From: Nanobdellota archaeon
Lineage (GTDB): Archaea; Nanobdellota; Nanobdellia; Pacearchaeales; GW2011-AR1
Direction of reading: 5' to 3'
DNA: 27,700 bases
NCBI GenBank assembly: GCA_041305305.1
Contig: JBFYLR010000019.1
Location: forward strand, 1 to 27,700
Made by a program: the position numbers and the translations under genes. Under the pieces are notes generated by a model. That model was not told the DNA's origin, searched no databases, and was given only the letters and a program-made list of their open reading frames with translations. Shown here in pieces: positions 1-24,871 of this stretch; within the stretch, counting starts at the first letter, position 1; each line of letters opens with the position of its first letter.

Positions 1-846
1 AACTGAATCTGTCTTATGATAGTACTTTATCTTGTGCGCCCTTTCCCATCCCGCATCAATGAATTTTTGATAATCTTTCTCGGAGAATAAATAGACATCT
101 TCATAATAATCTGTTTCAGAATTAGATATTGTGAAACCTGAAGGCAAATCTGTTGCTTTCAAATTCAATGCAATAAAGTCCTCGCTTGTTACTTCCAGAT
201 TCTGTTCTGTTTCTGTCGGAATATTTGGCGCCGCAGCGGGTGCTTTTTCACTTACAGAAGTCGATGTCCCACTAGAGGAGCCAAGCCTAAAACTATCTCT
301 CATATGCTCATAAATTGAGAGATATTTATCATAAGCTCCGCCCCATGCAGTATAAGATATCATATAATATGCCTTTTCTGAATCAATTATTATGCTCTTT
401 TGAGAGTATTTGACATCCGATATGACATAAGATGCAGTTATTTCCGTTGCGCTTCTTCCATTAATTGTTAAATCTAATTTGTCAGTTATTTCGTAATCTT
501 TCAATGTTTGGAATTGCCTCTCTAAACTTGCCACAAAATCTTCTTTCGTCGGATAACTTGATTTAAGTATCCCCTGCACATTCACATTCGCAGTCGAAGG
601 GGAATAAAAGAAAAGTTTGCTGTCTTCTATTGCTTGTTTCCAGGTATTTGGATATTCTATGCTGAATCCCTGGCTTTCTTCAATATAAACCTTCCATACG
701 ACTTTGCCACTGCCTCCAAAAATAAAGTATGCACCAACTACGAGGGCAACTGCCGCAATAGCAATTACTGCTCCCCAAATTAATTTTTTGCCCGAACCAC
801 TAGAATAACCTGGTTGCAAACCAAGTTCCTGTCCTCTTTTGTCCAT
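1..846 (-). CDS. Membrane-anchored PsbP/DcrB-like (DUF1795-type) surface protein, 3'-partial
   Basis: Translated by hand; absent from the ORF track because there is no stop in the window. 282 open codons: MDKRGQ..., TM segment LIWGAVIAIAAVALVVGAYFIF, motifs GFSIEYPNTW and LTINGRSA typical of PsbP-like folds, a Ser/Pro/Ala linker, then a second domain starting ALNLKATDLPSGF. Confidence 0.75.
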   Translation of the reverse strand, partial: MDKRGQELGLQPGYSSGSGKKLIWGAVIAIAAVALVVGAYFIFGGSGKVVWKVYIEESQGFSIEYPNTWKQAIEDSKLFFYSPSTANVNVQGILKSSYPTKEDFVASLERQFQTLKDYEITDKLDLTINGRSATEITASYVISDVKYSQKSIIIDSEKAYYMISYTAWGGAYDKYLSIYEHMRDSFRLGSSSGTSTSVSEKAPAAAPNIPTETEQNLEVTSEDFIALNLKATDLPSGFTISNSETDYYEDVYLFSEKDYQKFIDAGWERAHKIKYYHKTDSV

Positions 847-867
847 AACTCTCCCTATGTAAAGCAA

Positions 868-875
868 TATAAAAA
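868..875 (-). promoter_or_regulatory. TATA box with BRE-like GAAAAG for the 846 gene
   Basis: Minus strand reads GGGAAAAG-TTTTTATA, 21 nt upstream of ATG 846. Confidence 0.6.
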
Positions 876-888
876 CTTTTCCCAATAA

Positions 889-896
889 TTATATTA
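889..896 (+). promoter_or_regulatory. Possible TATA box for the nuclease gene
   Basis: TTATATTA, 22 nt upstream of ATG 919. Confidence 0.4.
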
Positions 897-918
897 ATCT
901 CTTCCGCTTCCTTCTTTT

Positions 919-1668
919 ATGGATAAGAAATATGCCTTTATTTTTGCATTTCTCCTCGCAGGGCTTATTCTATGTGATGTATTCGTATTCAAATCAATTT
1001 CTTCAAATACAGTTTCTGAAAGAGAAGAGGCAGTTATAGAAAGAGTAATTGATGGAGACACTCTGAAATTAACCGACGGGAGAACACTGAGGCTTCTGAA
1101 CATAAACTCCCCAGAAAAAGGGACCCCCGGTTCAAACCTCTCCTTCCAATTTCTGAGGCAATTTGAGAATACGACTATCTCTTTAGAGATAACGGGCATT
1201 GACAAGTACAGCAGAAGCCTTGCAAGAATATACGCTCCGGACTATCTAAATCTGAAAATAGTTGAGCTCGGGCTTGCCTCAAAGTTCCTTGTTCAGGATT
1301 CAGAACTCTCGCTCTTTGACAAAGCAGAAAGGAGTGCAATTGCAGCTTCCAAAGGGATTTGGGAGAAATCAGGCAATTTCGGATGCTTCAAATCCAGCAT
1401 AGACGAGCAGAATGAACTTGTCTTTTTGGAAAATGCCTGCAATAATATTTCTCTCAAGGGCTGGTTCTTGAAAGATGAAAGCAGAAAAATATACAAATTC
1501 GGAGATATTCATTTTGAGAAAATAACTCTTCATTCTTCCGCAGGAGAAGACAACTCAACAGATATATTCTGGAACAATAAAGATAATATATGGAATAATG
1601 ACAGAGATAGCTTATACATATTCGACGAAAATGGCAGAATCGCACATTCAAACTCTTACGGCTATTAG
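919..1668 (+). CDS. Thermonuclease (SNase family) with C-terminal lamin-tail domain and N-terminal membrane anchor/signal
   Basis: RVIDGDT, RLLNINSPE and DKYSRSLA match SNase motifs. The C-terminal NE.V.LEN...SLKGW.LKD...IWNNDRDSLYIFDENG matches the LTD pattern. Hydrophobic N-terminus. Confidence 0.85.
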   Translation: MDKKYAFIFAFLLAGLILCDVFVFKSISSNTVSEREEAVIERVIDGDTLKLTDGRTLRLLNINSPEKGTPGSNLSFQFLRQFENTTISLEITGIDKYSRSLARIYAPDYLNLKIVELGLASKFLVQDSELSLFDKAERSAIAASKGIWEKSGNFGCFKSSIDEQNELVFLENACNNISLKGWFLKDESRKIYKFGDIHFEKITLHSSAGEDNSTDIFWNNKDNIWNNDRDSLYIFDENGRIAHSNSYGY

Positions 1669-2884: not shown

Positions 2885-3898
2885 TTAATTCCTTTTATTT
2901 TCTATATTCTGAACTCTCTTTGCAAGGGGGTTCTTTTCTTCCTTTATTTTTCTATATCTGAGATAAATAAATATCCCTGCAATTATCACAATTGCAGCGA
3001 TAAGGTATCCTATCCAGGCGTAGCTTCCTCCTCCGCCGTTCTTTGAAATGCAGTTGCCATTGACGCAGCATGCGCCGTCAGAGCTGGTTATCGTCTGTCC
3101 GGAGCAAATCTGATTTGCCTCACATATCTTTCCCGGGAATTCGTAGCAATGATACTTCGCTCTCTCCTGGTTTATCGCACTGCTTTCATTTTCAGTCACA
3201 TTGATTTCCTCAGTTATATTTTCTATAAGCTTTGATGCATTCTCATTAGTCAAATTATTATCTTCTCCACTCTCATTAACAAATATATTATTCACTGTTC
3301 TGTTCAGTTTAAAATAAACAGGCAGAATAAACTCCTCAATTGAGAGATTGTACATTCCAGTCTCATTTATCTCCTCAGCAGAAAATGTAATTGTATTCTC
3401 CCCAGGCTTTAATATTATAATTCTGTCTGTTTCTTCAAGAAAATCTGTGTTTATTTCTTTGTCTTCATCCTCATTAAGGGTTATCGCTATATCAAAATCT
3501 CCGCTCGTATACACAAAACCTGGCTTTATAGTGTACTCGCTCAAATTTGCGGACGTTGAGAAATTCTTTGTGTAAGTTACATCTTCAATCTGTCCGGAAA
3601 CCGTTGAAGGGATATTCTTTATAATCAAAGTGTAATTCTCCTCATTCTTTGGAGTTATAAACCATAAGAAATACTCCTCGCCAAGTTTTCTTAATTCAAA
3701 CTCCATCGGGACAAGCACGTGCCCTCTTCTTAGTTCCACATTGCTGCTGCTAATCGCTCCAATGACATTTCCTTTTATCTCAGTTGCAACTGTCTCTCCC
3801 TGCAGATATTCTTCTTTTATGTCGGTAGTTATCGCAAGCGCTCCCTGAATACAGAATAAGAGGACCAGGCAGGCGCATATTAATAGTGTCTTGTTCAT
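2885..3898 (-). CDS. Cell-surface glycoprotein with Cys-rich module and C-terminal TM
   Basis: Signal peptide ...IQGALA|, 12 NxS/T sequons, 6-Cys module at 3050-3148, TM YAWIGYLIAAIVIIAGIFIYL and a basic tail. Confidence 0.8.
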   Translation of the reverse strand: MNKTLLICACLVLLFCIQGALAITTDIKEEYLQGETVATEIKGNVIGAISSSNVELRRGHVLVPMEFELRKLGEEYFLWFITPKNEENYTLIIKNIPSTVSGQIEDVTYTKNFSTSANLSEYTIKPGFVYTSGDFDIAITLNEDEDKEINTDFLEETDRIIILKPGENTITFSAEEINETGMYNLSIEEFILPVYFKLNRTVNNIFVNESGEDNNLTNENASKLIENITEEINVTENESSAINQERAKYHCYEFPGKICEANQICSGQTITSSDGACCVNGNCISKNGGGGSYAWIGYLIAAIVIIAGIFIYLRYRKIKEEKNPLAKRVQNIENKRN

Positions 3899-4241: not shown

Positions 4242-6104
4242 TTATTTGCTCATTTCCCTCAACTTTCTCAAAGCATCTTCCATTTCCTTATCTCTCGATT
4301 TTACTGGAGGTCTTGCCATTGGCCTCGCAATGGGTGCTCTTTGCGCAGGCGGCAGCATAGGTCTTCCATATGGCGCATATGGTGCTCCAGCTCTCTGCTG
4401 AGGCATTGGCGTTCTCTGTGGCGTTGCAGGCACTGCTCCCTTTTTCTTCAGCATCTTCACTTTTACAAATTCGACAGTCTTAAACCACCATATCTTTACT
4501 TTGTCTCTGTATATTATCCCGGCAACAACGAGCCCTATCAAAATTAGGAGCAGTATAATCCAAATCCAAAGAGATGAGCCCTTCTTCATGCAGCATATAT
4601 GTTCAGAGCTTGAGCACGTTTCAATCATGCTTTCCTCTTCACCTTCTTCACACATTCCTGCGCATGTCCCTCCGGCTGATGTGCATGTGTCTTCCTGCGG
4701 CGTTTGCATCTCAATGCAGGAGCCCCCTACGCAGCATGAACCATCAGAAGCGGACTCAATTACTCCTCCCTGGCAAGTCTGGGTGGATGTGCATATAAGC
4801 CCTCCTTTTTGGCTGCATGGCTGTTCGCCAACTTTTATTGAACAGCACAACTCTCCTGCGCTATTGCAGGCATAATCATAAAGCACCTGTCCTCCTGAGC
4901 TTGAGCAGAGATATCCTTTCTCGCATGAGAACTGAGGCTCGCACGCAGTAGGCGTATTTGGAGTAACTCCCTGTACTGACTTTGACCATCCTGAATAAAG
5001 TATAAATGCTGTGTCCCTTATGTTGTTATTATTCCAGCACCCATCATTTGTCTGCACACTAAGAAGATAACTCTTTGCATTGTCCAGTTCAGCCGCATTC
5101 TTTCCGGAGAGCGCGAGCATTGCAAGGCTTGTGTCATAGAATCTTCCTTCTTTCGTTCCAGTCATTTCCCAGAACTTCCCCTGTTCCTGCTCCTGGACTA
5201 TTATGTTATACTGTTCGTCTCCTCCTGTTAATATGTAAAGGAATGCGCTTGGGAAATATCTTGCATTGTCTTCTGCAAGAGCAAGAAGATATGGATTGAA
5301 TCTCATAGTGCTCTCTTTCATATTCTGCAATGCGAGCGTAGCCCATAAACTTCCCTCATAATCGCAGCTTGTCTCTGTCTTGAAGCAGTCTCCAGTTGCT
5401 GTTTCTTTTGTTGCGCCAAGAGAAGCAGCCGAGTGGCTCTCAGGCATTACAAAAAGTGTTCCGCCGGTTCCTCTCTGATAAACAATTGATGTAACAAAAT
5501 TTCCGGCTCCAGTATTGCATGAAATCTCAAATTCTTTCCTCAGGCAGTTATTATTTATCCTCAGCATATATCCCTGATTGTCTATTGCAAGACAGCTCCC
5601 CGGGCTTCCTCTTATTTTCATATCTTCCCCTATCTTAATATTATTGGTCTTCTCATCATACTTTATTGTACAATCTGCAGTGCCATGCTCGGCTATGTCT
5701 ATTTGAAGAAACCATTTCAAATCAGGGGCGCTCACATTCTTTGAGAGAAGCCATTTCTTTATTTCAGAGGTGTCTTTTCCCACTCTCTGATATGCAAGCG
5801 CAGCCATAGCTGTTTCTTTTATCTTGCATCCATTCTTGGGCCAGCACGAAGCCATAGTATCCTTATCGGCATCAATTCTATCAAGTGCGTTGGATTTTCC
5901 GCCTATTGCCAGAACGGTAAATACCGCTTCCTGAAATCCTAATTGAGTGCTCGCTTTAACCTTATCTTCAAGGCACTTGTATGCTTTTTCAACTTTGTCA
6001 GAACTTTCAGATATAGAAACATTTTCTGCAGCAACAGCAAAACTCGCGAGAAGAAGCGCAACAACCACACTTATTGATAATACTATTACCACCTTGCTTT
6101 TCAT
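4242..6104 (-). CDS. Surface protein with prenyltransferase/squalene-cyclase-like alpha/alpha-toroid repeats, three Cys-rich modules, TM and Pro-rich cytoplasmic tail
   Basis: Signal peptide ...SFAVAA|, QW-type motif YLLSVQTNDGCW, repeated DT.LA.LAL helices, Cys modules at 4590-4943, TM LWIWIILLLILIGLVVAGIIY. Confidence 0.75.
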   Translation of the reverse strand: MKSKVVIVLSISVVVALLLASFAVAAENVSISESSDKVEKAYKCLEDKVKASTQLGFQEAVFTVLAIGGKSNALDRIDADKDTMASCWPKNGCKIKETAMAALAYQRVGKDTSEIKKWLLSKNVSAPDLKWFLQIDIAEHGTADCTIKYDEKTNNIKIGEDMKIRGSPGSCLAIDNQGYMLRINNNCLRKEFEISCNTGAGNFVTSIVYQRGTGGTLFVMPESHSAASLGATKETATGDCFKTETSCDYEGSLWATLALQNMKESTMRFNPYLLALAEDNARYFPSAFLYILTGGDEQYNIIVQEQEQGKFWEMTGTKEGRFYDTSLAMLALSGKNAAELDNAKSYLLSVQTNDGCWNNNNIRDTAFILYSGWSKSVQGVTPNTPTACEPQFSCEKGYLCSSSGGQVLYDYACNSAGELCCSIKVGEQPCSQKGGLICTSTQTCQGGVIESASDGSCCVGGSCIEMQTPQEDTCTSAGGTCAGMCEEGEEESMIETCSSSEHICCMKKGSSLWIWIILLLILIGLVVAGIIYRDKVKIWWFKTVEFVKVKMLKKKGAVPATPQRTPMPQQRAGAPYAPYGRPMLPPAQRAPIARPMARPPVKSRDKEMEDALRKLREMSK

Positions 6105-6125
6105 GGATTTTTAATGTATTTCTTA

Positions 6126-6133
6126 TTTAAAAA
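6126..6133 (-). promoter_or_regulatory. TATA box
   Basis: Minus strand TTTTTAAA(TA), 21 nt upstream of ATG 6104. Confidence 0.6.
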
Positions 6134-6150
6134 TGTTCCTTAGAGTTCCT

Positions 6151-7761
6151 TTAATTTGCCCGCCTTCCTCTTGCCTTCCTTATTACTTCAACAATGGGGT
6201 TTTTCACATCCGGCTTCTTGTCAAGCAGATTCAAATCTTTGTAAAAACTAGGGTTGTCATAATTTGGAGGGAGGATATTTTTCTTCTGCCTTAAGTGCCA
6301 ATCGAGCTGACTTTTTATGTATCCTTCTTTCAACTGAGGTTCATTGAGCTTATTCCAGTCACGAACCCTCTGATTGATATAATCTGCAGGAAAGTTCAGG
6401 CTTCTTAAAAAGGTTATAATTACAAACAATCCTCTCTTTTTCCCGTCTTTCATCCCCTTTAGGAGTTTCTTTATCGGCTCTGGGAACATCTCTTCCGTGA
6501 CTCCTTTTATGTCTACTTTCTCATAATTATCATATTTCTTATAGTTCTTTTCTTCTTCTGTGGTGTTCATTTTTTTCCAGTCAAGAGCAGCACTCAGAAG
6601 CTGCTTTGCTTCTCCCTCTTCATTTTCCGGGAGATAATCAATTAGGTTTACATTCATCGGGCTTGCATCTCTTGGGGTGAATGAGTCTATCTGCTCTTTT
6701 TTTAAAACAATGCTTGCAAGCGCAGTTTTCTCATGCAGGGAATAAGGCATTCTGAATAAATGCCTCGGGGCAACAAGAATCAAATCAAGATTTGCTATTT
6801 TTTCAGCGCTTATGCTCTCTTTCTCTTCAAAATATTCAGGATATTTGTCTGAGCTGAGAGGGAAAATTTCATTTTCAGGGTCTTTGCAAAACTCGCAGTA
6901 ATAATAACTCTCGCTCCCAGCAACTTCAAGTTCTCCTGTGCATTTGTCATTCAGGCATCTTAATTTTCTTTTTGTCAGCTTAACGTCTCTTCTTTCTATT
7001 TCAAGCCCGCACAAAGGGCATTGGAATTTTGTTATTGCTCCTTTCTTGGCAGGCTTGTCCGATATCTTGCAATAAACTTCCATTAAATCTTCTTTAGACA
7101 AATTTGTTCTCCTTTTTATTGCATCAAAATCTGTCAGAATCTCTGCCGCGAGATTGTTATAGTCTTTTCTTATATAACTCATCAAATACTCGCAAACGGC
7201 TCTTGCCCATTCGGGGAACATATTCTTTGTCTCAAACCCGGAATATTCTCTTGGAAATGCCTTCCCGGACAAAATAATATGAAATCCTTTGCTTCCTGAG
7301 AATTTAATTCCGTAATTTTTTATTCCATGCTGTTCCAGCGCCGCAACTATAAGTCTCGTAGCTATTTTAGAGCAGTCTATGAAAGGAGAATCGACATCAA
7401 TCAGCAGGTCCCAGGATTTTCTGAGCTTATCTGCATCTTCCCTTGTCATATCTGAATTCAGGGAGAGCGGATCATTCCAGAGTTCTTCTGATGCATGAAA
7501 TGATGTTGCTCCTTTGTTAACGAGCCCCATTATATCTGAAGGATATTCTATCTTGTCAGGGCGCTTCCCAAAACCCTCATAATATCTCGGGACGACCTCC
7601 CTGTTTATTGCAAATTTTGCGAGATATTCCAATATTTTCGGGTTGGAATAATAAAATCTTGTTATCGCTCTCACTCTTTCTTCTTTCTTGTCAATTTCCC
7701 TTTTCTCGGGAGTCCAGTCTTTTGCTTCCTTCTTGCTTGCCTCTTTCTTCCATTTATCCAT
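6151..7761 (-). CDS. priS: Fused DNA primase (PriS catalytic domain plus PriL-CTD/PriX-like domain)
   Basis: AEP motifs WDLLIDVD, FSGSKGFH and D...RHLFRMPYSLHEKT. The C-terminal FPEPI...DGKKR.LF....FL...PPNY...KNP follows the PriL-CTD pattern. ATG 7761 preferred over GTG 7779 from TATA spacing. Confidence 0.88.
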   Translation of the reverse strand: MDKWKKEASKKEAKDWTPEKREIDKKEERVRAITRFYYSNPKILEYLAKFAINREVVPRYYEGFGKRPDKIEYPSDIMGLVNKGATSFHASEELWNDPLSLNSDMTREDADKLRKSWDLLIDVDSPFIDCSKIATRLIVAALEQHGIKNYGIKFSGSKGFHIILSGKAFPREYSGFETKNMFPEWARAVCEYLMSYIRKDYNNLAAEILTDFDAIKRRTNLSKEDLMEVYCKISDKPAKKGAITKFQCPLCGLEIERRDVKLTKRKLRCLNDKCTGELEVAGSESYYYCEFCKDPENEIFPLSSDKYPEYFEEKESISAEKIANLDLILVAPRHLFRMPYSLHEKTALASIVLKKEQIDSFTPRDASPMNVNLIDYLPENEEGEAKQLLSAALDWKKMNTTEEEKNYKKYDNYEKVDIKGVTEEMFPEPIKKLLKGMKDGKKRGLFVIITFLRSLNFPADYINQRVRDWNKLNEPQLKEGYIKSQLDWHLRQKKNILPPNYDNPSFYKDLNLLDKKPDVKNPIVEVIRKARGRRAN

Positions 7762-7781
7762 GTCTTTCAGAGAAAACACTG

Positions 7782-19044: not shown

Positions 19045-19517
19045 GAACAATAAGACGAAGAAGAATTGAAGGCAAAACTGATTATAAATCTAGATTGAAT
19101 CTTCTTAAATCAGAAAAACCAAGGCTTGTAGTCAGAAAAACAAACAGATACATCACTGCTCAACTTGTCATATCTGATATTGCGCAGGATAAGATTGTTG
19201 CAGGATTAAACTCAAAAGCACTTCTATCAAAAGGATGGCCTTCTGAGCTCTCTGGAAGTCTAAAGAGTCTCGGAGCAGCGTATCTTACCGGATTCCTTCT
19301 CGGAAAGCTTGCAATAAAATCCGGAATAAAAGAGGCAATTCTTGACATGGGGATGTACAGAAACATAAAGAATTCAAGAATTTATGCGGTTGTTAAAGGA
19401 GCAGTTGACTCAGGCATGGAAATTCCTCACAACGAGGACATTCTCCCCCAGATGGAAAATATTAAAAATGACAAGATTGCAAAAATATTTGACAAAATAA
19501 CAGGAGGCTCAGAATAA
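19041..19517 (+). CDS. rpl18: 50S ribosomal protein uL18
   Basis: RRRRIEGKTDY..RL.LL, RLVVRKTNR.I.AQ, AAYLTG.L.G, YA.VKGAVD.G...PH. Confidence 0.97.
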   Translation: MRTIRRRRIEGKTDYKSRLNLLKSEKPRLVVRKTNRYITAQLVISDIAQDKIVAGLNSKALLSKGWPSELSGSLKSLGAAYLTGFLLGKLAIKSGIKEAILDMGMYRNIKNSRIYAVVKGAVDSGMEIPHNEDILPQMENIKNDKIAKIFDKITGGSE

Positions 19518-20320
19518 TGGCTGAAAAAGACATAAAAGGAAAACAGAAAGGGCTCGTTGAAGCAACCCCTGAAGAATTGGAGAAGGTTGCGGAGAAAATT
19601 TCAAAAGTAGAAGAACTTCCTATTGAAATAAAGAGAGAGAGGCTAAGCAGAGCAGAGATTGAAGCAGAAAGACAGAAACAAGCGCTTGCTTCATGGGTGC
19701 CAAAAACTGCTCTTGGAAAGCTTGTAAGGACCGGAAAGGAGAAGGACATAGACAAAATTCTTCACGAGCACAAGAAAATTCTTGAACCAGAAATAGTTGA
19801 TTTGTCTCTTAAGCTTGATGTAGACCTTCTTTCAATCGGGCAGGCAAAAGGAAAGTTCGGCGGAGGAAAGAGGCGAGCCTGGAGGCAGACTCAGAAGAAG
19901 ACTATGGAAAGCAACGTCACTTCATTCTCATGCATGGCTGTTGTAGGAGACAGAAATGGGCACGTAGGAATAGGAATGGGCAAAGCAAAAGAAACGCTTC
20001 CTTCCAGGGCAAAAGCAATCAGGGATGCAAAGCTTAATTTAATAAGAGTCACAAGAGGATTTGAAACCAAAGAAGCTCCCGGCTCAAAACCTCACACAGT
20101 TCCATTTGTTGTTGAAGGCAAATGCGGTTCAGTGAGAGTTAAATTGATACCTGCTCCTCGAGGCTCAGGCCTGGTTATAGGGGATGAATGCAAGAAGATA
20201 TTAAAACTTGCAGGAATAGAAGATGTTTACAGCATGACAAAAGGGCAGACGAGAACTGTCTTTAACTTTGCCAATGCATGCATTGATGCGCTTAAAAAAA
20301 CAAGCAGGATGAAACTCTAA
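19517..20320 (+). CDS. rps5: 30S ribosomal protein uS5
   Basis: W.PKT.LGKLV, VVGDRNGHVG.G.GKA.E, PHTVPF.V.GKCGSVRV.L.PAPRG.GLV.G. Confidence 0.97.
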   Translation: MAEKDIKGKQKGLVEATPEELEKVAEKISKVEELPIEIKRERLSRAEIEAERQKQALASWVPKTALGKLVRTGKEKDIDKILHEHKKILEPEIVDLSLKLDVDLLSIGQAKGKFGGGKRRAWRQTQKKTMESNVTSFSCMAVVGDRNGHVGIGMGKAKETLPSRAKAIRDAKLNLIRVTRGFETKEAPGSKPHTVPFVVEGKCGSVRVKLIPAPRGSGLVIGDECKKILKLAGIEDVYSMTKGQTRTVFNFANACIDALKKTSRMKL

Positions 20321-20321
20321 A

Positions 20322-20732
20322 ATGTTATTGCTAATAAGAATATCCGGATTGGTTGAAATGCCCTCAGATGCGCAGGAAACGCTTTTCAGAATGAGGTTAA
20401 GAAAGAAGTACTCTGCAATTCTCCTGAAAGAAACAGAGGGAAACATGAAACTCCTTCAGCACATAAGAAATTTCGTAGCCTATGGCCCGATAGACGCTTC
20501 AACTCTTGAACTCTTAATCTCAAAGAGAGGAAAATCTCCTGACAATAAGAAGGTGGACAGCAAAAAGGCTGCAGAACTAATTGCAAAAGAAGGAATTGAA
20601 AAGTCAGGAATAAAGCCTTTCTTCAGATTGCATCCTCCAAGAGGCGGGATTAAATCAAAGCTTCATTTTCCAAAAGGCGTTTTAGGAGATAACGGAGAAG
20701 ATATTAACAAATTGGTAAGGAGGATGTTATGA
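20322..20732 (+). CDS. rpl30: 50S ribosomal protein uL30
   Basis: IRI.G, TL..MRL, FRLHPPRGG, G..GE.IN.LV.RM. Confidence 0.96.
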   Translation: MLLLIRISGLVEMPSDAQETLFRMRLRKKYSAILLKETEGNMKLLQHIRNFVAYGPIDASTLELLISKRGKSPDNKKVDSKKAAELIAKEGIEKSGIKPFFRLHPPRGGIKSKLHFPKGVLGDNGEDINKLVRRML

Positions 20733-21265
20733 AAGTCAAAAGGCGAAGGAAGAATACAAGATACCGCGGCTCCCAAACTCACTTCAGAGGGCATAGAAAG
20801 AGAACGAAAGGACTGGGCAATCAGGGAGGAAAAGGAATGTCTGGCTCAGAAAATCAGAAGAAATCTCTCATTATACAAAAATATGGGATTGAATATTTCG
20901 GCTCGCATTCAGCGTTAAGAAGAGGAAGAACTTCTCCAAAATTGAAAGTAATAAATCTCTCTGATTTGATTAAGAGATTTGACCTGCTTGTAAAACAGGG
21001 GCTGGCAAAACAGACTCAAAAAGGATTTGAATTTAATCTTGAAGGATATAAAGTTCTTGGAAACGGCCCTCTTGGAGCAAAGATATCTGTAAAAGCGAAC
21101 GCAGCCTCAAAGTCGGCAATAGAAGAAATAAAAGCAGGCGGCGGGACAATAGAACTCAAATCCGACAAACAGGAAGATACACAAACTCCTAAGGAAGAAA
21201 AGACTGCTGAAAAAACAGATGTTAAGAAAGCAAAACCTGCAGTCAAAAAAGAAGCAAAGAAATAA
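20729..21265 (+). CDS. rpl15: 50S ribosomal protein uL15 with Lys/Glu-rich C-terminal tail
   Basis: RYRGS.TH, G.GN.GGKG.SG, GYKVLG.G, S.SA.E.I.A.GG. Confidence 0.95.
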   Translation: MKVKRRRKNTRYRGSQTHFRGHRKRTKGLGNQGGKGMSGSENQKKSLIIQKYGIEYFGSHSALRRGRTSPKLKVINLSDLIKRFDLLVKQGLAKQTQKGFEFNLEGYKVLGNGPLGAKISVKANAASKSAIEEIKAGGGTIELKSDKQEDTQTPKEEKTAEKTDVKKAKPAVKKEAKK

Positions 21266-21285
21266 TTTCGTTCTCCGCTGGATTG

Positions 21286-21350
21286 AAGCCCGCAGCAAAT
21301 AAAGGAAGGTTGAACTTCAAGGACCTCAAGAATCGAAATGAATTGCCTTG
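21286..21350 (+). repeat. Dispersed repeat copy in the convergent rpl15/adhesin spacer
   Basis: Contains AAGCCCGCAGCA (21286-21297), GGAAGGTTGAACTTCAAGGA (21304-21323) and TTGCCTT (21343-21349); CAAGG/CCTTG can close a stem. Confidence 0.8.
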
Positions 21351-21370
21351 CTCAAATTCTGCAACTCTAA

Positions 21371-23434
21371 TTAATCTAATCTTCTGTAGAAAACATATAT
21401 TATCGTTATTGCTAACAACGCTATGGCAAAGTTGAACCTCCCAAAGAAGGGCATGTTCAGCTCCATAAGCCCACATGGGACATCTTCAACAGTTCCATCT
21501 TGGCATTCAGAGTCAACAACATCTGTGCACTGCTCCGCGGTGCTTGGAGCAATTGGAACAATCTCTGCGCTTATTGTGACAGTTTTAGTTCCGCTTTCAT
21601 CATCACATTCGGACTCATCGGATACTGTCTTTGTGCACCTGTAACTGCAGTCTCCCTGTTGTGATGCGCATGATATCTTGCACGCACTATTCTCCCATAT
21701 ACATTCGCATGCTCTTCCAATTATATACCCTGGGTCGCTCAATACTACTCCCGGAGCATAATTCTTGCATGTTGGCTCTGAAGTATAATCAGAGCATTTC
21801 AGCAGGCTTGGTCCAGAAGTGCATCCAGTAGTATTCCAGGTGCAATCAGCATAGCATCTCAATGTTCCTCCTGTGAATCCCAGTCCTATCGTAGTGCAGT
21901 TATTCCCTCCGAGGTTTAATTTATCGCACTTTTCTGTTCCTTCAATAATGCTATTCCCGCAGGTAGCTGTTGAAGTGCCCGTTAGGATTAATGCACTGCT
22001 TTTTGCAACTATGGATTTGTTTGCTTCAAGTGTTACATTGAAGTAATATGTTCCAGATATCGCATTTGCATTCCATTCAAGAACAGTTTTATTGTTTGTG
22101 ACAGTTGCATTAAAGACTGCGACTGTGGCATTCGATGAATTGTAAATTGTAAAGTTTACTATCTCTCCCTGCGAGCAGTTTATTGCTGTCGCGTTCATTT
22201 TTACGCTTCCTTCCCCGAATATGATACTGGTCTGGTTCCATTTTGCCAGATTCAGCACACAGCAGTTCTTTGTTCCGGCAATGCTTCTGGTGTTCCCGCA
22301 TCCATCTGTCTGAGTTACATTCACAACCGTGCAATAATTTGAAAGGTCTGGAGTCCAGGCAGGAGTGCACGCATTGCATACATTGTTTGAACATCCATAT
22401 GGACAGAGCGTTCTTGCAAGAACTCCGCAGGTTAATCCACCGACAACTATTGAATTACATGTTCCCAGGGTTGTGCTGTTAACACATGAAATCGAACCTA
22501 TTACACACTGATTTGAACAGCATGCCTGAGTTTCTGAATCTGCTCCTGAACATGCAGCCCCTCCGCATTGCGGGGTAGGATTTGTGCATGTCCTTGTTCT
22601 TGTCTGCAAATTATTTGTGCATGTGCTCCAGGCGCTCCAGGCGCTCCATCCTCCATTCAAGGTAGGCTTCGTTCCATATCTGTCTCTTTCTGTGTTGCAG
22701 TTGCTTGTCTGATGAACATAAACATAATTGCAATAATTTGCAAGGTCGGGCGTCCATGTACTCGGAGTGCAACAATCTCCCCTGTAGCATACTTGTCCTG
22801 CTGCGGTGCATTGAGCTAAATCGGTCCATTTCGCGCAGTCTCCTCCAATACCAGCAGGCGAGCCATCATATATTCTAGTGCACTGCCTTCCCTGAGGGTA
22901 AACTGTTCCTGTTTTGCATTCTCTTAATCCTATATTGTTGCAGTTGCTATAGCACGCGCAAGTCCAGGTGTATTTACTATAACTGCTCCAACTCCCGCAC
23001 CCCCAGCACCCTGTTGATGAACGGCATGACATTGACAAACTAGAACATTGGCTGCCAGTTACTCTCTGGAACCCTGAAGGACAGACGCATGTGCAGGTAT
23101 ATCCTGATTCAGTCCTTGTGACGATAGATGCTGAAGTAGCGGTTCCGCAGCATGCATGGGTTATCATGCTGCTTCCAGAACTATCGCTGTCACCGCATGA
23201 TCTTGTCTCGCTCGCTACTCCGCTGGCAACTGCTACAAGGTAACCTCTAAGGCAAGGCGCACCATAACTCGTGCATATTGCCGTTCCCTGATAGCTTGAA
23301 CTGCTTCTTGCATATACCCATCCCCCTCTGCTTGCGCAATCGGCATACATATCCAATGCGCCCACAACCCCGGAGAGAACAATCATCAATAGCATTCCAG
23401 AAATAACTGCAACAATCACCCCTCTCTTCTTCAT
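21371..23434 (-). CDS. Cys-rich adhesin-like surface protein with TSP1 repeat, duplicated Cys module, Ig-like domain and C-terminal TM
   Basis: MKKRG-hydrophobic signal; TSP1 motif GGWSAWSAWSTC...QTRTRTCTNPTPQCGGAACSG; CGN...E.CD module; C-terminal MPFFG-TM-RR. Confidence 0.85.
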   Translation of the reverse strand: MKKRGVIVAVISGMLLMIVLSGVVGALDMYADCASRGGWVYARSSSSYQGTAICTSYGAPCLRGYLVAVASGVASETRSCGDSDSSGSSMITHACCGTATSASIVTRTESGYTCTCVCPSGFQRVTGSQCSSLSMSCRSSTGCWGCGSWSSYSKYTWTCACYSNCNNIGLRECKTGTVYPQGRQCTRIYDGSPAGIGGDCAKWTDLAQCTAAGQVCYRGDCCTPSTWTPDLANYCNYVYVHQTSNCNTERDRYGTKPTLNGGWSAWSAWSTCTNNLQTRTRTCTNPTPQCGGAACSGADSETQACCSNQCVIGSISCVNSTTLGTCNSIVVGGLTCGVLARTLCPYGCSNNVCNACTPAWTPDLSNYCTVVNVTQTDGCGNTRSIAGTKNCCVLNLAKWNQTSIIFGEGSVKMNATAINCSQGEIVNFTIYNSSNATVAVFNATVTNNKTVLEWNANAISGTYYFNVTLEANKSIVAKSSALILTGTSTATCGNSIIEGTEKCDKLNLGGNNCTTIGLGFTGGTLRCYADCTWNTTGCTSGPSLLKCSDYTSEPTCKNYAPGVVLSDPGYIIGRACECIWENSACKISCASQQGDCSYRCTKTVSDESECDDESGTKTVTISAEIVPIAPSTAEQCTDVVDSECQDGTVEDVPCGLMELNMPFFGRFNFAIALLAITIIYVFYRRLD
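22625..22648 (-). repeat. 9-nt tandem repeat encoding WSA-WSA-WS
   Basis: The plus strand reads GCTCCAGGC GCTCCAGGC GCTCCA. Confidence 0.7.
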
Positions 23435-23455: not shown

Positions 23456-23463
23456 TTTAAAAA
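23456..23463. promoter_or_regulatory. Single TATA element positioned for both divergent genes (adhesin and secY)
   Basis: TTTAAAAA lies 22 nt from secY ATG 23486 and, read as TTTTTAAA, 21 nt from adhesin ATG 23434. Confidence 0.6.
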
Positions 23464-23485
23464 CTTGTTTTTTTCTAATAATATA

Positions 23486-24871
23486 ATGGATTTAAAGAGT
23501 ATTTTGTACAATCTCCCTGAGGTGAAGCATCCTGAGGAGAAGAAACTCAGCTTCAATGCAAAGTTGAAGTGGACTTTGATAATTCTTGTAGGCTTCTTCA
23601 TTCTTGCGAATATTTCTCTTTTCGGGCTGGCTCAAAACTCTTTGGACAGGTTTGAATATCTTGCTATAATTCTCGGAACAGATTTCGGTTCCGTCATATC
23701 TCTGGGTATCGGTCCGATAGTAATGGCTTCCATTATTCTTCAGCTCCTTGTAGGCTCGGGCATTCTGAAGATAGACGTTAACAACGCGGAAGGAAAGAAA
23801 CTATTTCAGGGAATTCAGAAAATTGGTGTTTTAGTTTTCATAGTTTTTGAAGCGCTTGTTTATGTCCTCATGGGAGGATTGCAGGCAATGCCAGGATATG
23901 CAGGGATAGTAATATTCCAGCTTATTCTTGGAGGCTTGGCAATAATGCTTATGGACGAAGTCACGACAAAATACGGCTTCGGTTCAGGAGTCTCATTGTT
24001 TATCGTCGCAGGAGTTGCCTGGAGATTATTCAACGGATTATTCCAGTTCATCGGACCTACAGGGGCAAACTGCCTTTCTGACTTCTCAGGAACACCATGC
24101 GCAGGTAATCTCTTAATAATCCTCCAATCGGTTATAAACGGGGCGCCAAAGGAAGCCCTTCTTGCGATAATGGCTATAGCAGTCACTGTATTAATTTTCT
24201 GCGCAGTCGTCTGGACTCAAAGTCTCAAAGTTGAAATCCCTCTCTCATATGACCGACTAAGAGGATATAGTATGAAATGGCCTCTCGCATTTTTCTACAC
24301 CTCAAACATACCCGTCATTCTTACGGCTGCGCTTGTCGCAAACATCCAGCTATTTGGAGGATTAATTGAGAATGCAGTAGGGCATGCAACCTGGTTTGGA
24401 GGTTTCTCGCAAGGGCAGGCAACTTCAGGTTTGGCCTTCTGGATGGGCAGTTCAAATGTTGTTGAGGCGATTATTAGGGGGAATCTTCAGACAGTTCAAA
24501 TCTTCCAGGGGCTGACTCATCTTCTCTTTTTCATGGGCTTTTCTGTTTTGTTCGCAGTATTCTGGGTCAAAACATCCGGGATGGACGCGCAGGCGCAGGC
24601 TAAGAAGATAATTTCATCCGGCATGCAGATTCCAGGTTTCAGAAAAGATGAGAGGGTCCTTGAAGCAATTCTTGCTAGATACATCATGCCCCTCACAGTT
24701 ATGGGCGGATTAGTTATCGGCGCTCTCGCTGCACTTACAGATTCCTTCGGAGCAATGACTTCCGGAACAGCAATTCTTCTTGCAGTTATGATTATGTATC
24801 AGTTGTATCAGAATGTCGCGCATCAGCACGCGCTTGATATGCATCCGGTATTGAGAAAAGTTGTCGAGTAA
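23486..24871 (+). CDS. secY: Preprotein translocase subunit SecY
   Basis: LPEV..P...LSF..KLKWT, LGIGPIV.ASIILQLL.G, FFYTSNIPVIL, QIPGFR.D.R, SGT.ILLAV.I. Start corrected to ATG 23486. Confidence 0.98.
   Translation: MDLKSILYNLPEVKHPEEKKLSFNAKLKWTLIILVGFFILANISLFGLAQNSLDRFEYLAIILGTDFGSVISLGIGPIVMASIILQLLVGSGILKIDVNNAEGKKLFQGIQKIGVLVFIVFEALVYVLMGGLQAMPGYAGIVIFQLILGGLAIMLMDEVTTKYGFGSGVSLFIVAGVAWRLFNGLFQFIGPTGANCLSDFSGTPCAGNLLIILQSVINGAPKEALLAIMAIAVTVLIFCAVVWTQSLKVEIPLSYDRLRGYSMKWPLAFFYTSNIPVILTAALVANIQLFGGLIENAVGHATWFGGFSQGQATSGLAFWMGSSNVVEAIIRGNLQTVQIFQGLTHLLFFMGFSVLFAVFWVKTSGMDAQAQAKKIISSGMQIPGFRKDERVLEAILARYIMPLTVMGGLVIGALAALTDSFGAMTSGTAILLAVMIMYQLYQNVAHQHALDMHPVLRKVVE

Follow-up and report, generated by a model that had tools for sequence, protein, structure and literature searches.

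A fast-evolving gene for a predicted Cys-rich surface protein at the rpl15-secY junction in a clade of Pacearchaeota

DPANN archaea, including the Pacearchaeota, presumably live attached to other cells, and to our knowledge the proteins that make this contact are almost unknown. The closest described systems include surface proteins and genomic loci. Among surface proteins, the TRAP/MIC2-type adhesins of apicomplexan parasites, which attach to cells, are type I proteins whose ectodomain combines thrombospondin type 1 repeats (TSR, or TSP1) with a vWA/I domain, and the variant-specific surface and high-cysteine membrane proteins of Giardia constitute a large gene family with expression switching and a conserved C-terminus. 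Among genomic loci, flexible genomic islets at operon borders are known for presence/absence polymorphism and heterogeneous cargo. In this article, we analyze a gene that lies between rpl15 and secY, on the opposite strand to both, in 27.7 kb of contig JBFYLR010000019.1 from a Nanobdellota archaeon (this whole stretch is referred to as the window, the gene as the slot gene). Our best explanation as a whole, to which we assign a probability of roughly 60%, is that the slot gene encodes an old, fast-evolving, membrane-anchored surface protein, a candidate for host contact, and that it resides at a permissive border between transcription units.

The window is an archaeal contig that carries a long ribosomal-protein cluster (L3 ... 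L19e, L18, S5, L30, L15) followed by secY, with an EMC3/YidC-like gene, the proteasome alpha gene and SBDS located 3' of secY. Its SecY and the closest SecY proteins of Pacearchaeota are 84-90% identical, homologs that are 74-90% identical carry the names Pacearchaeota, Woesearchaeota or Nanoarchaeota in public records, and the source organism is, as judged from these sequences, a DPANN archaeon of the Pacearchaeota group. An initial annotation of this DNA had described an open reading frame (ORF) antisense between rpl15 and secY, and both its coordinates (21371-23434) and its length of 687 amino acids (aa) proved exact. The junction contains the following features:

20729..21265, + strand: rpl15 (archaeal uL15), final gene of the ribosomal protein cluster (Pfam Ribosomal_L27A/L15, E 4.6e-12)
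21266..21370: convergent spacer of 105 nucleotides (nt) from the rpl15 stop to the slot-gene stop, which holds a repeat copy at 21296-21323
21371..23434, - strand: slot gene, ORF for a predicted 687-aa Cys-rich modular surface protein, with homologs at the same site in L001, L084, L086, L087 and L090
23435..23485: divergent intergenic region of 51 nt with a single A/T-rich TATA-like element, TTTAAAAA, at 23456-23463
23486..24871, + strand: secY, 461 aa (Pfam SecY, E 5.8e-61)

The correct start of secY is the ATG at 23486 rather than the TTG at 23465, because 120 of the 120 homologs listed are ~461 aa long and the translated SecY proteins of L001 and L086 start with MDLKSILYNL.

Homologs of the slot gene are found at the rpl15-secY site in six independent assemblies, namely the window and the following five:

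L001, NCBI GCA_964354195.1: two tandem genes of 671 and 590 aa
L084, JGI 3300035701: one gene of 727 aa
L086, JGI 3300049914: one ORF of 676 aa at 5918-7948 (+), for which the deposited call is truncated to 315 aa
L087, JGI 3300056594: gene at 1-1603 (+), split by a stop, beside the L15 C-terminus
L090, Logan SRR23086379: partial gene of 409 aa that reaches the contig end

The orientation of the slot gene is identical in every bearer locus that includes the flanks, the gene order L19e-L18-S5-L30-L15 is kept in relatives, and the head-to-head arrangement with secY, pointed out in the initial annotation, recurs in all bearers whose sequence extends to secY. Because the window comes from a metagenome, one could suspect an assembly artefact, i.e., a chimeric contig in which a foreign gene was placed between rpl15 and secY. 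However, the same family, orientation and neighbors occur in NCBI, JGI (three samples) and Logan assemblies, and the composition at codon position 3 matches that of the flanks. We dismiss misassembly at the junctions, which the initial annotation had raised against its own reading, because the same arrangement would not recur in six datasets; the artefact is effectively refuted and its probability negligible, and the slot gene and its junction are genuine. Deposited gene calls under-report the slot family (the L086 call is truncated and the L087 gene is split), which is why the first homolog search yielded only one full-length relative. The in-frame stop in L087 represents a frameshift, a pseudogene or a sequencing error.

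The slot gene is predicted to encode a Sec-exported, C-terminally membrane-anchored, disulfide-rich surface protein that is probably N-glycosylated. This architecture is deduced from a signal peptide, a C-terminal transmembrane helix with a basic tail, 62 Cys, 14 N-X-S/T sequons, and modules of the TSP1, Ig-like and Myxococcota types, and it agrees with the earlier description of a mosaic protein of surface type. From the N-terminus onward, the ectodomain has an orphan Cys domain, module A on either side of TSP1, with a Cys linker ahead of its second copy, then an Ig-like sandwich, a Myxococcota-type Cys module and another beta domain. All segments are on the - strand:

23354..23434, - strand: signal peptide, aa 1-27, MKKRGVIVAVISGMLLMIVLSGVVGA followed by L (read from the sequence; predicted helix 4-35)
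22772..23353, - strand: orphan Cys-rich N-terminal domain, aa 28-221, 22 Cys (homologs P0002 and P0250 only)
22667..22771, - strand: module A copy 1, aa 222-256, CTPSTWTPDLANYC...QTSNC...R..GTK
22499..22666, - strand: thrombospondin type 1 repeat, aa 257-312, WSAWSAWS...QTRTRTC (PF00090 and solved TSR structures)
22370..22498, - strand: Cys-rich linker, aa 313-355, 6 Cys (conserved in P0002, L086 and L090)
22268..22369, - strand: module A copy 2, aa 356-389 (copy conserved across all paralogs)
21974..22267, - strand: putative Ig-like beta-sandwich, aa 390-487 (fragment model and Foldseek)
21815..21973, - strand: Myxococcota-type Cys module, aa 488-540, CGNSIIEGTEKCD...GGTLRCYADCTWNTTGC (repeat similarity to P0245)
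21479..21814, - strand: predicted C-terminal Cys-rich beta domain, aa 541-652, 11 Cys (AlphaFold2 fragment)
21374..21478, - strand: PCGL...LPFFG motif, transmembrane helix and RR tail, aa 653-687 (invariant columns)

Comparison of the whole slot protein with Pfam and NCBIfam gave nothing useful, and domain matches were obtained only with isolated segments. Structure prediction, which the initial annotation had recommended for the domains, behaved similarly: fragments gave the Ig-like and beta domains, while the full-length AlphaFold2 model was too poor (mean pLDDT 37) and was left out of the fold search. The relatives have ASA-type cleavage motifs at the matching position of the signal peptide. 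For the N-terminal domain (aa 28-221), the only 2 homologs among 1.84 billion representative proteins, P0002 and P0250, both belong to the slot family; this domain has no Pfam match and its model has pLDDT below 50. Module A is a 34-aa unit, CTPxxWTPDLxNYC...QTxxC...R...GTK, and its duplication at 22667-22771 and 22268-22369, noticed in the initial annotation, is borne out by about half of the residues being identical between the copies (by eye) and by 76% DNA identity over 51 nt.

The TSP1 assignment of the initial annotation is the most secure one. Scanned alone, the segment matches PF00090 with E 1.1e-6 (29.1 bits against a cut-off of 21.6), aa 259-312 match human thrombospondin-1 TSR structures (3r6b) with E 1.5e-16, and a homology search matched at least 100 TSP1 proteins. 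The closest TSRs are 66-75% identical and occur in environmental proteins, whereas animal matches are 41-58% identical; we read two contigs with close TSRs, both of which have prokaryotic gene context, one of them clearly bacterial. From these sequences, nothing points to an animal origin of the TSR in the slot gene.

The Ig-like segment carries 10 of the 14 sequons. Its AlphaFold2 fragment has pLDDT 67-86 over aa 393-485 and, in Foldseek, superposes on PD-1, TCR V and C5 MG domains with E 2e-4 to 2e-3 and a target-normalized TM of 0.47-0.66 against solved Ig domains. An Ig-like fold for aa 390-487, as first proposed from the letters, is supported by this model with moderate confidence. The Cys module was originally delimited as a CGN motif of myxobacterial kind at 21821-21961. 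The kinship holds insofar as the module shows 46-56% identity over ~48 aa to five repeat copies of the Myxococcota protein P0245 (37% to a sixth), itself without Pfam match, but the curated repeat models stay below threshold on it (TIGR02232 16.7 bits, cut-off 20.8; DUF4215 16.3, cut-off 27) and their partial matches cover only its first ~19 residues. The module is, judging by these alignments, a related but uncurated variant of the myxobacterial repeat, present here in single copy. The C-terminal beta domain has AlphaFold2 pLDDT 68-78 for aa 574-654 and is conserved in all family members. The invariant columns of the last segment include P653, C654, G655, L656, P662, F663, F664, G665, N668 and F669; we interpret aa 653-687 as a predicted C-terminal membrane anchor and possibly also as a sorting signal. 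The CTERM profiles are below threshold on the C-terminus (Heimdall-CTERM 16.9 bits, cut-off 24; PEF-CTERM 11.8, cut-off 23), and no other protein in the window ends with an LPFFG motif and a transmembrane helix. Viral relatives of the slot protein were found neither in PHROGs nor in a viral contig scan, and scans of metagenome contigs with the family alignment gave no further match.

How do these modules compare with the described families? The slot protein has a canonical TSR with the WSxWSxWS ladder, QTRTRTC and six or seven Cys, as in TSP1/TSR (PF00090) proteins, but it has a single repeat inside an otherwise unrelated archaeal protein. With the TRAP/MIC2 adhesins it shares, by analogy only, a type I topology with a signal peptide, an ectodomain containing a TSR, and one C-terminal transmembrane helix followed by a short tail, and it differs from them in being archaeal, in lacking a vWA/I domain, in a cytoplasmic tail of 4 residues and in homology that is limited to the TSR. 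The CGNxxxExxExCD...C...C...C module aligns to the P0245 repeats and in this respect resembles the myxobacterial repeat (TIGR02232 myxo_disulf_rpt / PF13948 DUF4215), although it occurs only once and below both curated cut-offs. The tripartite C-terminus, with the LPFFG motif, a hydrophobic helix and basic RR/KK residues, recalls the archaeosortase/exosortase CTERM domains (PGF-, PEF- and Heimdall-CTERM), although its scores are below the cut-offs and the resemblance is weak. The slot protein accordingly belongs with TSP1 proteins and, at the level of fold, with Ig-like proteins, and it falls outside the curated myxobacterial repeat and CTERM families. It represents a new orphan family assembled from modules of known types, and no major concept changes with it. 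In the literature on thrombospondin in DPANN archaea, Cys-rich surface proteins of Pacearchaeota and secY gene order in DPANN archaea, we found nothing on this locus.

Within the clade of bearers the slot gene diverges 3-10 times faster than its flanks, with clade-wide aa identity of 37-61% for the slot protein versus 88-97% for the flanking proteins. Individual comparisons are as follows:

L001 versus L086, aa identity: slot protein 61%; L15 88%, L30 90%, S5 95%
L001 versus L086, nonsynonymous divergence (dN): slot gene 0.305; S5, L30 and L15 0.031-0.088
L086 versus L084 (SecY is partial in L001), aa identity: slot protein 49%; SecY 95%, with SecY dN 0.035
Window versus orthologs, aa identity: slot protein 37-53%; concatenated flanking proteins ~84-85%

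The pairwise ratio of nonsynonymous to synonymous divergence (dN/dS) of 0.18-0.49 indicates that the slot ORF is a protein under selection, and the gene is under net purifying selection. This ratio also bears on whether the slot gene could be a decaying remnant of an old insertion, a pseudogene in progress without current function, as its very fast divergence, the stop in L087 and the truncated JGI call in L086 might suggest. Besides the low dN/dS, the ORFs are intact in the window, L001, L084 and L086 (671-727 aa) and the Cys positions and the C-terminal motif are invariant, and we consider decay very improbable.

Synonymous divergence (dS) of the slot gene, ~1.0-1.2, is also elevated compared with ~0.4-0.7 for L15, L30, S5 and secY in the same genome pairs (L001, L084 and L086), and this doubling may stem from paralog conversion, from an exchange of old alleles, or from noise in the alignments. 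L001 has tandem paralogs of 671 and 590 aa. The 727-aa gene of L084 is a mosaic of the L001 paralogs, with P0002-like 5' and 3' ends and a P0241-like middle, and its product has no TSR. From these alignments the slot gene is remodeled by tandem duplication, gain and loss of modules, and recombination between paralogs. We rejected the slot gene as target of a diversity-generating retroelement: the window has no reverse transcriptase, and the internal repeat differs at all base types rather than specifically at adenines. The Giardia surface proteins offer an analogy only: the slot family is likewise Cys-rich and type I, with conserved helix and C-terminus and an ectodomain that diverges and recombines between paralogs. 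In contrast to Giardia, the family has one or two copies at one locus, no sequence homology to the Giardia proteins and no sign of expression switching.

The distribution of the slot gene suggests a single origin. In a neighbor-joining tree (S5+L30+L15+SecY+L18+L19e; bearers window, L001, L084 and L086; 200 bootstraps) the four bearers form one clade in 198/200 bootstraps, and L082, which has an intact rpl15-secY junction, is sister to them in 176/200. The junction is likewise intact in the close relatives L085, L002, L091 and L092, presence or absence of the slot gene differs among relatives whose SecY proteins are 87-89% identical, and the junction of L007 holds a 203-aa ORF unrelated to the slot gene. 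The simplest history read from these sequences is that the gene inserted once into the rpl15-secY junction, in the common ancestor of this small clade, and was then retained. The branching order and the native GC content at third codon positions (GC3) are our reasons for a single old insertion.

The initial annotation had noted that the slot gene is visibly richer in GC, partly owing to Cys, Gly, Thr and Ala. The gene is indeed GC-richer (0.458 versus 0.404 for the whole window), but the excess is wholly, not partly, due to amino-acid composition, i.e., to Cys, Gly, Thr, Ala and Ser codons and to codon position 2 (GC2 0.570; Cys 9.0%, Gly 9.6%, Thr 11.5% of the protein). GC3, at 0.406, is like that of the neighbors (0.30-0.46 in 26 neighboring genes), so the atypical synonymous-site composition expected of an island is not seen in the slot gene and we reject recent horizontal transfer. 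In the window we found neither an ORF for an integrase or transposase nor a pair of flanking repeats; a tRNA scan and an Rfam scan of the window were empty as well. Rather than an interchangeable cassette, the slot gene is a long-standing resident of one clade, native in composition and inherited vertically. The initial annotation held that fixation across the lineage with ordinary composition would speak against its reading, and half of this is what we observe: composition is ordinary and inheritance is vertical within the clade.

We surveyed the junction in the 65 GTDB Pacearchaeota species representatives that have both genes, taking as gap the distance between secY and the point where the L15 match ends, with the following result:

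gap of 180 nt or less: 39 species
gap of 181-1000 nt: 17 species
gap of 1077-4347 nt: 9 species

Extra DNA of 239-4347 nt is present at the junction in 26 of the 65 species (~40%). The premise of the initial annotation that rpl15-secY is among the most conserved gene pairs therefore fails in this lineage, the adjacency is unreliable in this order, a point of use in annotation, in binning checks based on synteny and in marker-gene phylogenomics, and the locus is evidence for an insertion hot spot within the archaeal spc cluster. The cargo includes PIN and HEPN toxin-antitoxin domains, a methyltransferase, PEP-utiliser proteins, TrmB, nucleoside deoxyribosyltransferase, a dCTP deaminase-like protein, AdoMet decarboxylase, a reverse transcriptase, an ABC transporter and small membrane proteins. 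It is unrelated across Pacearchaeota and always of the slot family within the bearing clade. The proposal of a hypervariable slot is thus sound with regard to the variable junction, which is intact in L082, L085, L002, L091 and L092, but not with regard to its content: relatives had been expected to carry different surface genes here, and the bearing clade always has one family while the cargo elsewhere is not surface genes.

Some of this cargo deserves a brief description. L057 has a reverse transcriptase in the slot (7045-7944). L019 (7013-7670) has a putative toxin-antitoxin pair formed by a PIN protein and a small partner, L053 (7134-7788) is similar by sequence, and in L076 (7267-7940) a HEPN protein and a small partner form another putative pair. 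By sequence, the cargo of these four loci would be of selfish or defence type, inside the ribosomal cluster.

The region upstream of secY provides a possible reason for this tolerance. In the window, the TATA-like element TTTAAAAA is ~22-30 nt from both start codons, those of the slot gene and of secY. A TATA box, TTTATATA or TTTAAAAA, lies ~23-30 nt upstream of the secY ATG in the bearers and in L082, where the junction is intact and the box directly follows the rpl15 stop. We infer that secY forms its own transcription unit in this order and that the junction is a transcription-unit border; insertions would be harmless because they fall upstream of secY's own promoter. With the box directly after the rpl15 stop, the junction would tolerate insertions and could accumulate unrelated cargo, as in ~40% of the species. 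The slot gene and secY would be divergently transcribed from the shared 51-bp region with its single TATA-like element. This spacer is identical to that of L090 at 48 of 51 positions (94%), compared with 79% for secY DNA and 37% for the slot protein; such conservation argues for a constrained regulatory element, which may fire in both directions. The spacer has no significant fold, and a scan for bacterial-type promoters and terminators, a type of scan not applicable to archaea, gave no terminator.

The evidence on the junction, the tree and the spacer bears on the explanation originally offered, a recently acquired, interchangeable host-attachment cassette in a hypervariable slot, functionally coupled to the translocon gene secY. 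Several observations are in line with it: the slot is variable across Pacearchaeota, presence/absence differs among the relatives with 87-89% SecY identity, the head-to-head orientation is invariant among bearers, the 51-nt region is unusually conserved, and the twofold dS could reflect exchange of diverged alleles. However, GC3 is native, mobility genes, tRNA and flanking repeats were not found, the bearers are one clade with one gene family, and the cargo of other lineages is not surface genes. Moreover, the TATA box of secY is present without an insertion, so the proximity to secY follows from insertion tolerance, and the position of the slot gene is best explained by where insertions are tolerated. 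We consider a recent cassette unlikely. The comparison with genomic islets leads to a similar picture: the site shows presence/absence and mixed cargo, including toxin-antitoxin domains and reverse transcriptase, but unlike islets it lies within the usual spc operon, has no integrase, tRNA or att repeats, and its cargo in the clade is stable and native.

Under the explanation that we prefer, an old anchored surface protein at a permissive border, the gene entered the rpl15-secY junction once, stayed under net purifying selection, diverged fast and was remodeled. Its product could serve in cell-cell contact, by which this presumed episymbiont would attach to its host cell or recognize it, and the rapid change of the protein could be a response to pressure from host, phage or predator. 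Host attachment, and likewise coupling to secY, are suggestions from sequence. The slot gene is nevertheless a concrete lineage-specific candidate for host contact in DPANN archaea: its product is predicted to be exported and anchored, is built in part from binding modules, and evolves fast.

The main alternative to cell contact is a structural or protective role in the envelope, for example as part of an S-layer-associated glycoprotein coat that evolves fast under pressure from viruses or grazers. The dense sequons, the many Cys capable of forming disulfides and the membrane anchor would suit such a coat, the same contig has two further Cys-rich anchored orphan proteins, and the C-terminus is weakly like the archaeosortase-type signals typical of S-layer glycoproteins. 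On the other hand, TSP1 and Ig-like modules are classically ligand-binding, absence from L082, L085, L002, L091 and L092 would be unusual for an essential wall component, and there is one copy per genome (two in L001). A coat role seems to us rather unlikely. A bolder variant of the contact hypothesis, which we regard as more doubtful still, is a dedicated surface-variation locus in which the 51-bp region, conserved amid diverging surroundings, would act as a bidirectional promoter and co-express secY with a TSR-bearing host-recognition protein, while duplication and recombination between tandem paralogs would generate mosaic ectodomains on a constant anchor. If true, this would be an archaeal counterpart of antigenic or host-range variation in parasites and a candidate host-specificity determinant for Pacearchaeota.

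Several points weigh against our preferred explanation of an old surface protein at a permissive border. More than half of the protein (aa 1-390) has pLDDT below 50, and the Ig-like assignment is based on a 6-sequence alignment with moderate scores. The overall dN/dS below 1 gives no sign of positive selection, and the six sequences are very divergent. The clade that includes L090 is found in only 107/200 bootstraps in a tree of the downstream genes. The gaps in the junction survey were taken between tblastn alignment ends, and the smallest insertions (239-311 nt) may be long L15 tails. Finally, the shared TATA box is read from its spacing only, and in L001, L084 and L086 the spacer is longer (92-145 nt) with an extra A/T-rich element.

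The convergent spacer on the other side of the slot gene is 105 nt in the window versus 7-18 nt in relatives, and neither a significant fold nor a terminator-like site was found in it (21266..21370). It holds one of two copies of a repeat:

12906..12933, + strand: 28-nt repeat copy in the S19/L22 spacer, after S19
21296-21323: 28-nt repeat copy in the convergent spacer, after L15

The exact 20-mer GGAAGGTTGAACTTCAAGGA, the core of the repeat, occurs twice in the window, at 12914 (S19/L22 spacer) and 21304, and contains the palindrome TTGAA-C-TTCAA. Two matches exceed chance (none of 100 shuffles had two), and no copy occurs in 86 related loci. A repeat-family copy had been noted at the 3' boundary of the slot gene; the copy is there, but with two copies only it is part of a pair and not of a family. 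A structured-RNA reading of the repeat was dropped because folding gave no significant structure in either repeat-bearing spacer; there was no Rfam match.

Other genes of the window may be mentioned briefly. Two ORFs on the - strand, 2885-3898 and 4242-6104, encode orphan proteins (337 and 620 aa), each with signal peptide and membrane anchor; they contain Cys-rich membrane-proximal modules (e.g., SDGxCCVxGxC) and have no Pfam or PHROG matches, and the organism appears to maintain several Cys-rich surface proteins. The gene at 919-1668 (+) is predicted to encode a secreted protein that joins a homolog of staphylococcal nuclease to a lamin-tail domain, which would fit nucleotide scavenging by a symbiont with a reduced genome. 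The gene at 6151-7779 (-), which adjoins PCNA (7877-8617), encodes a 542-aa protein in which a long Cys-rich (zinc-ribbon-like) insertion splits the small-subunit domain of a DNA primase. Among the ribosomal proteins, S5 (19517-20320) and L22 (12965-13591) have apparent N-terminal extensions, with the L22 Pfam domain starting from residue 77, and the C-terminal tail of L15 (20729-21265) is rich in Lys and differs from one relative to another; these extensions are lineage-specific.

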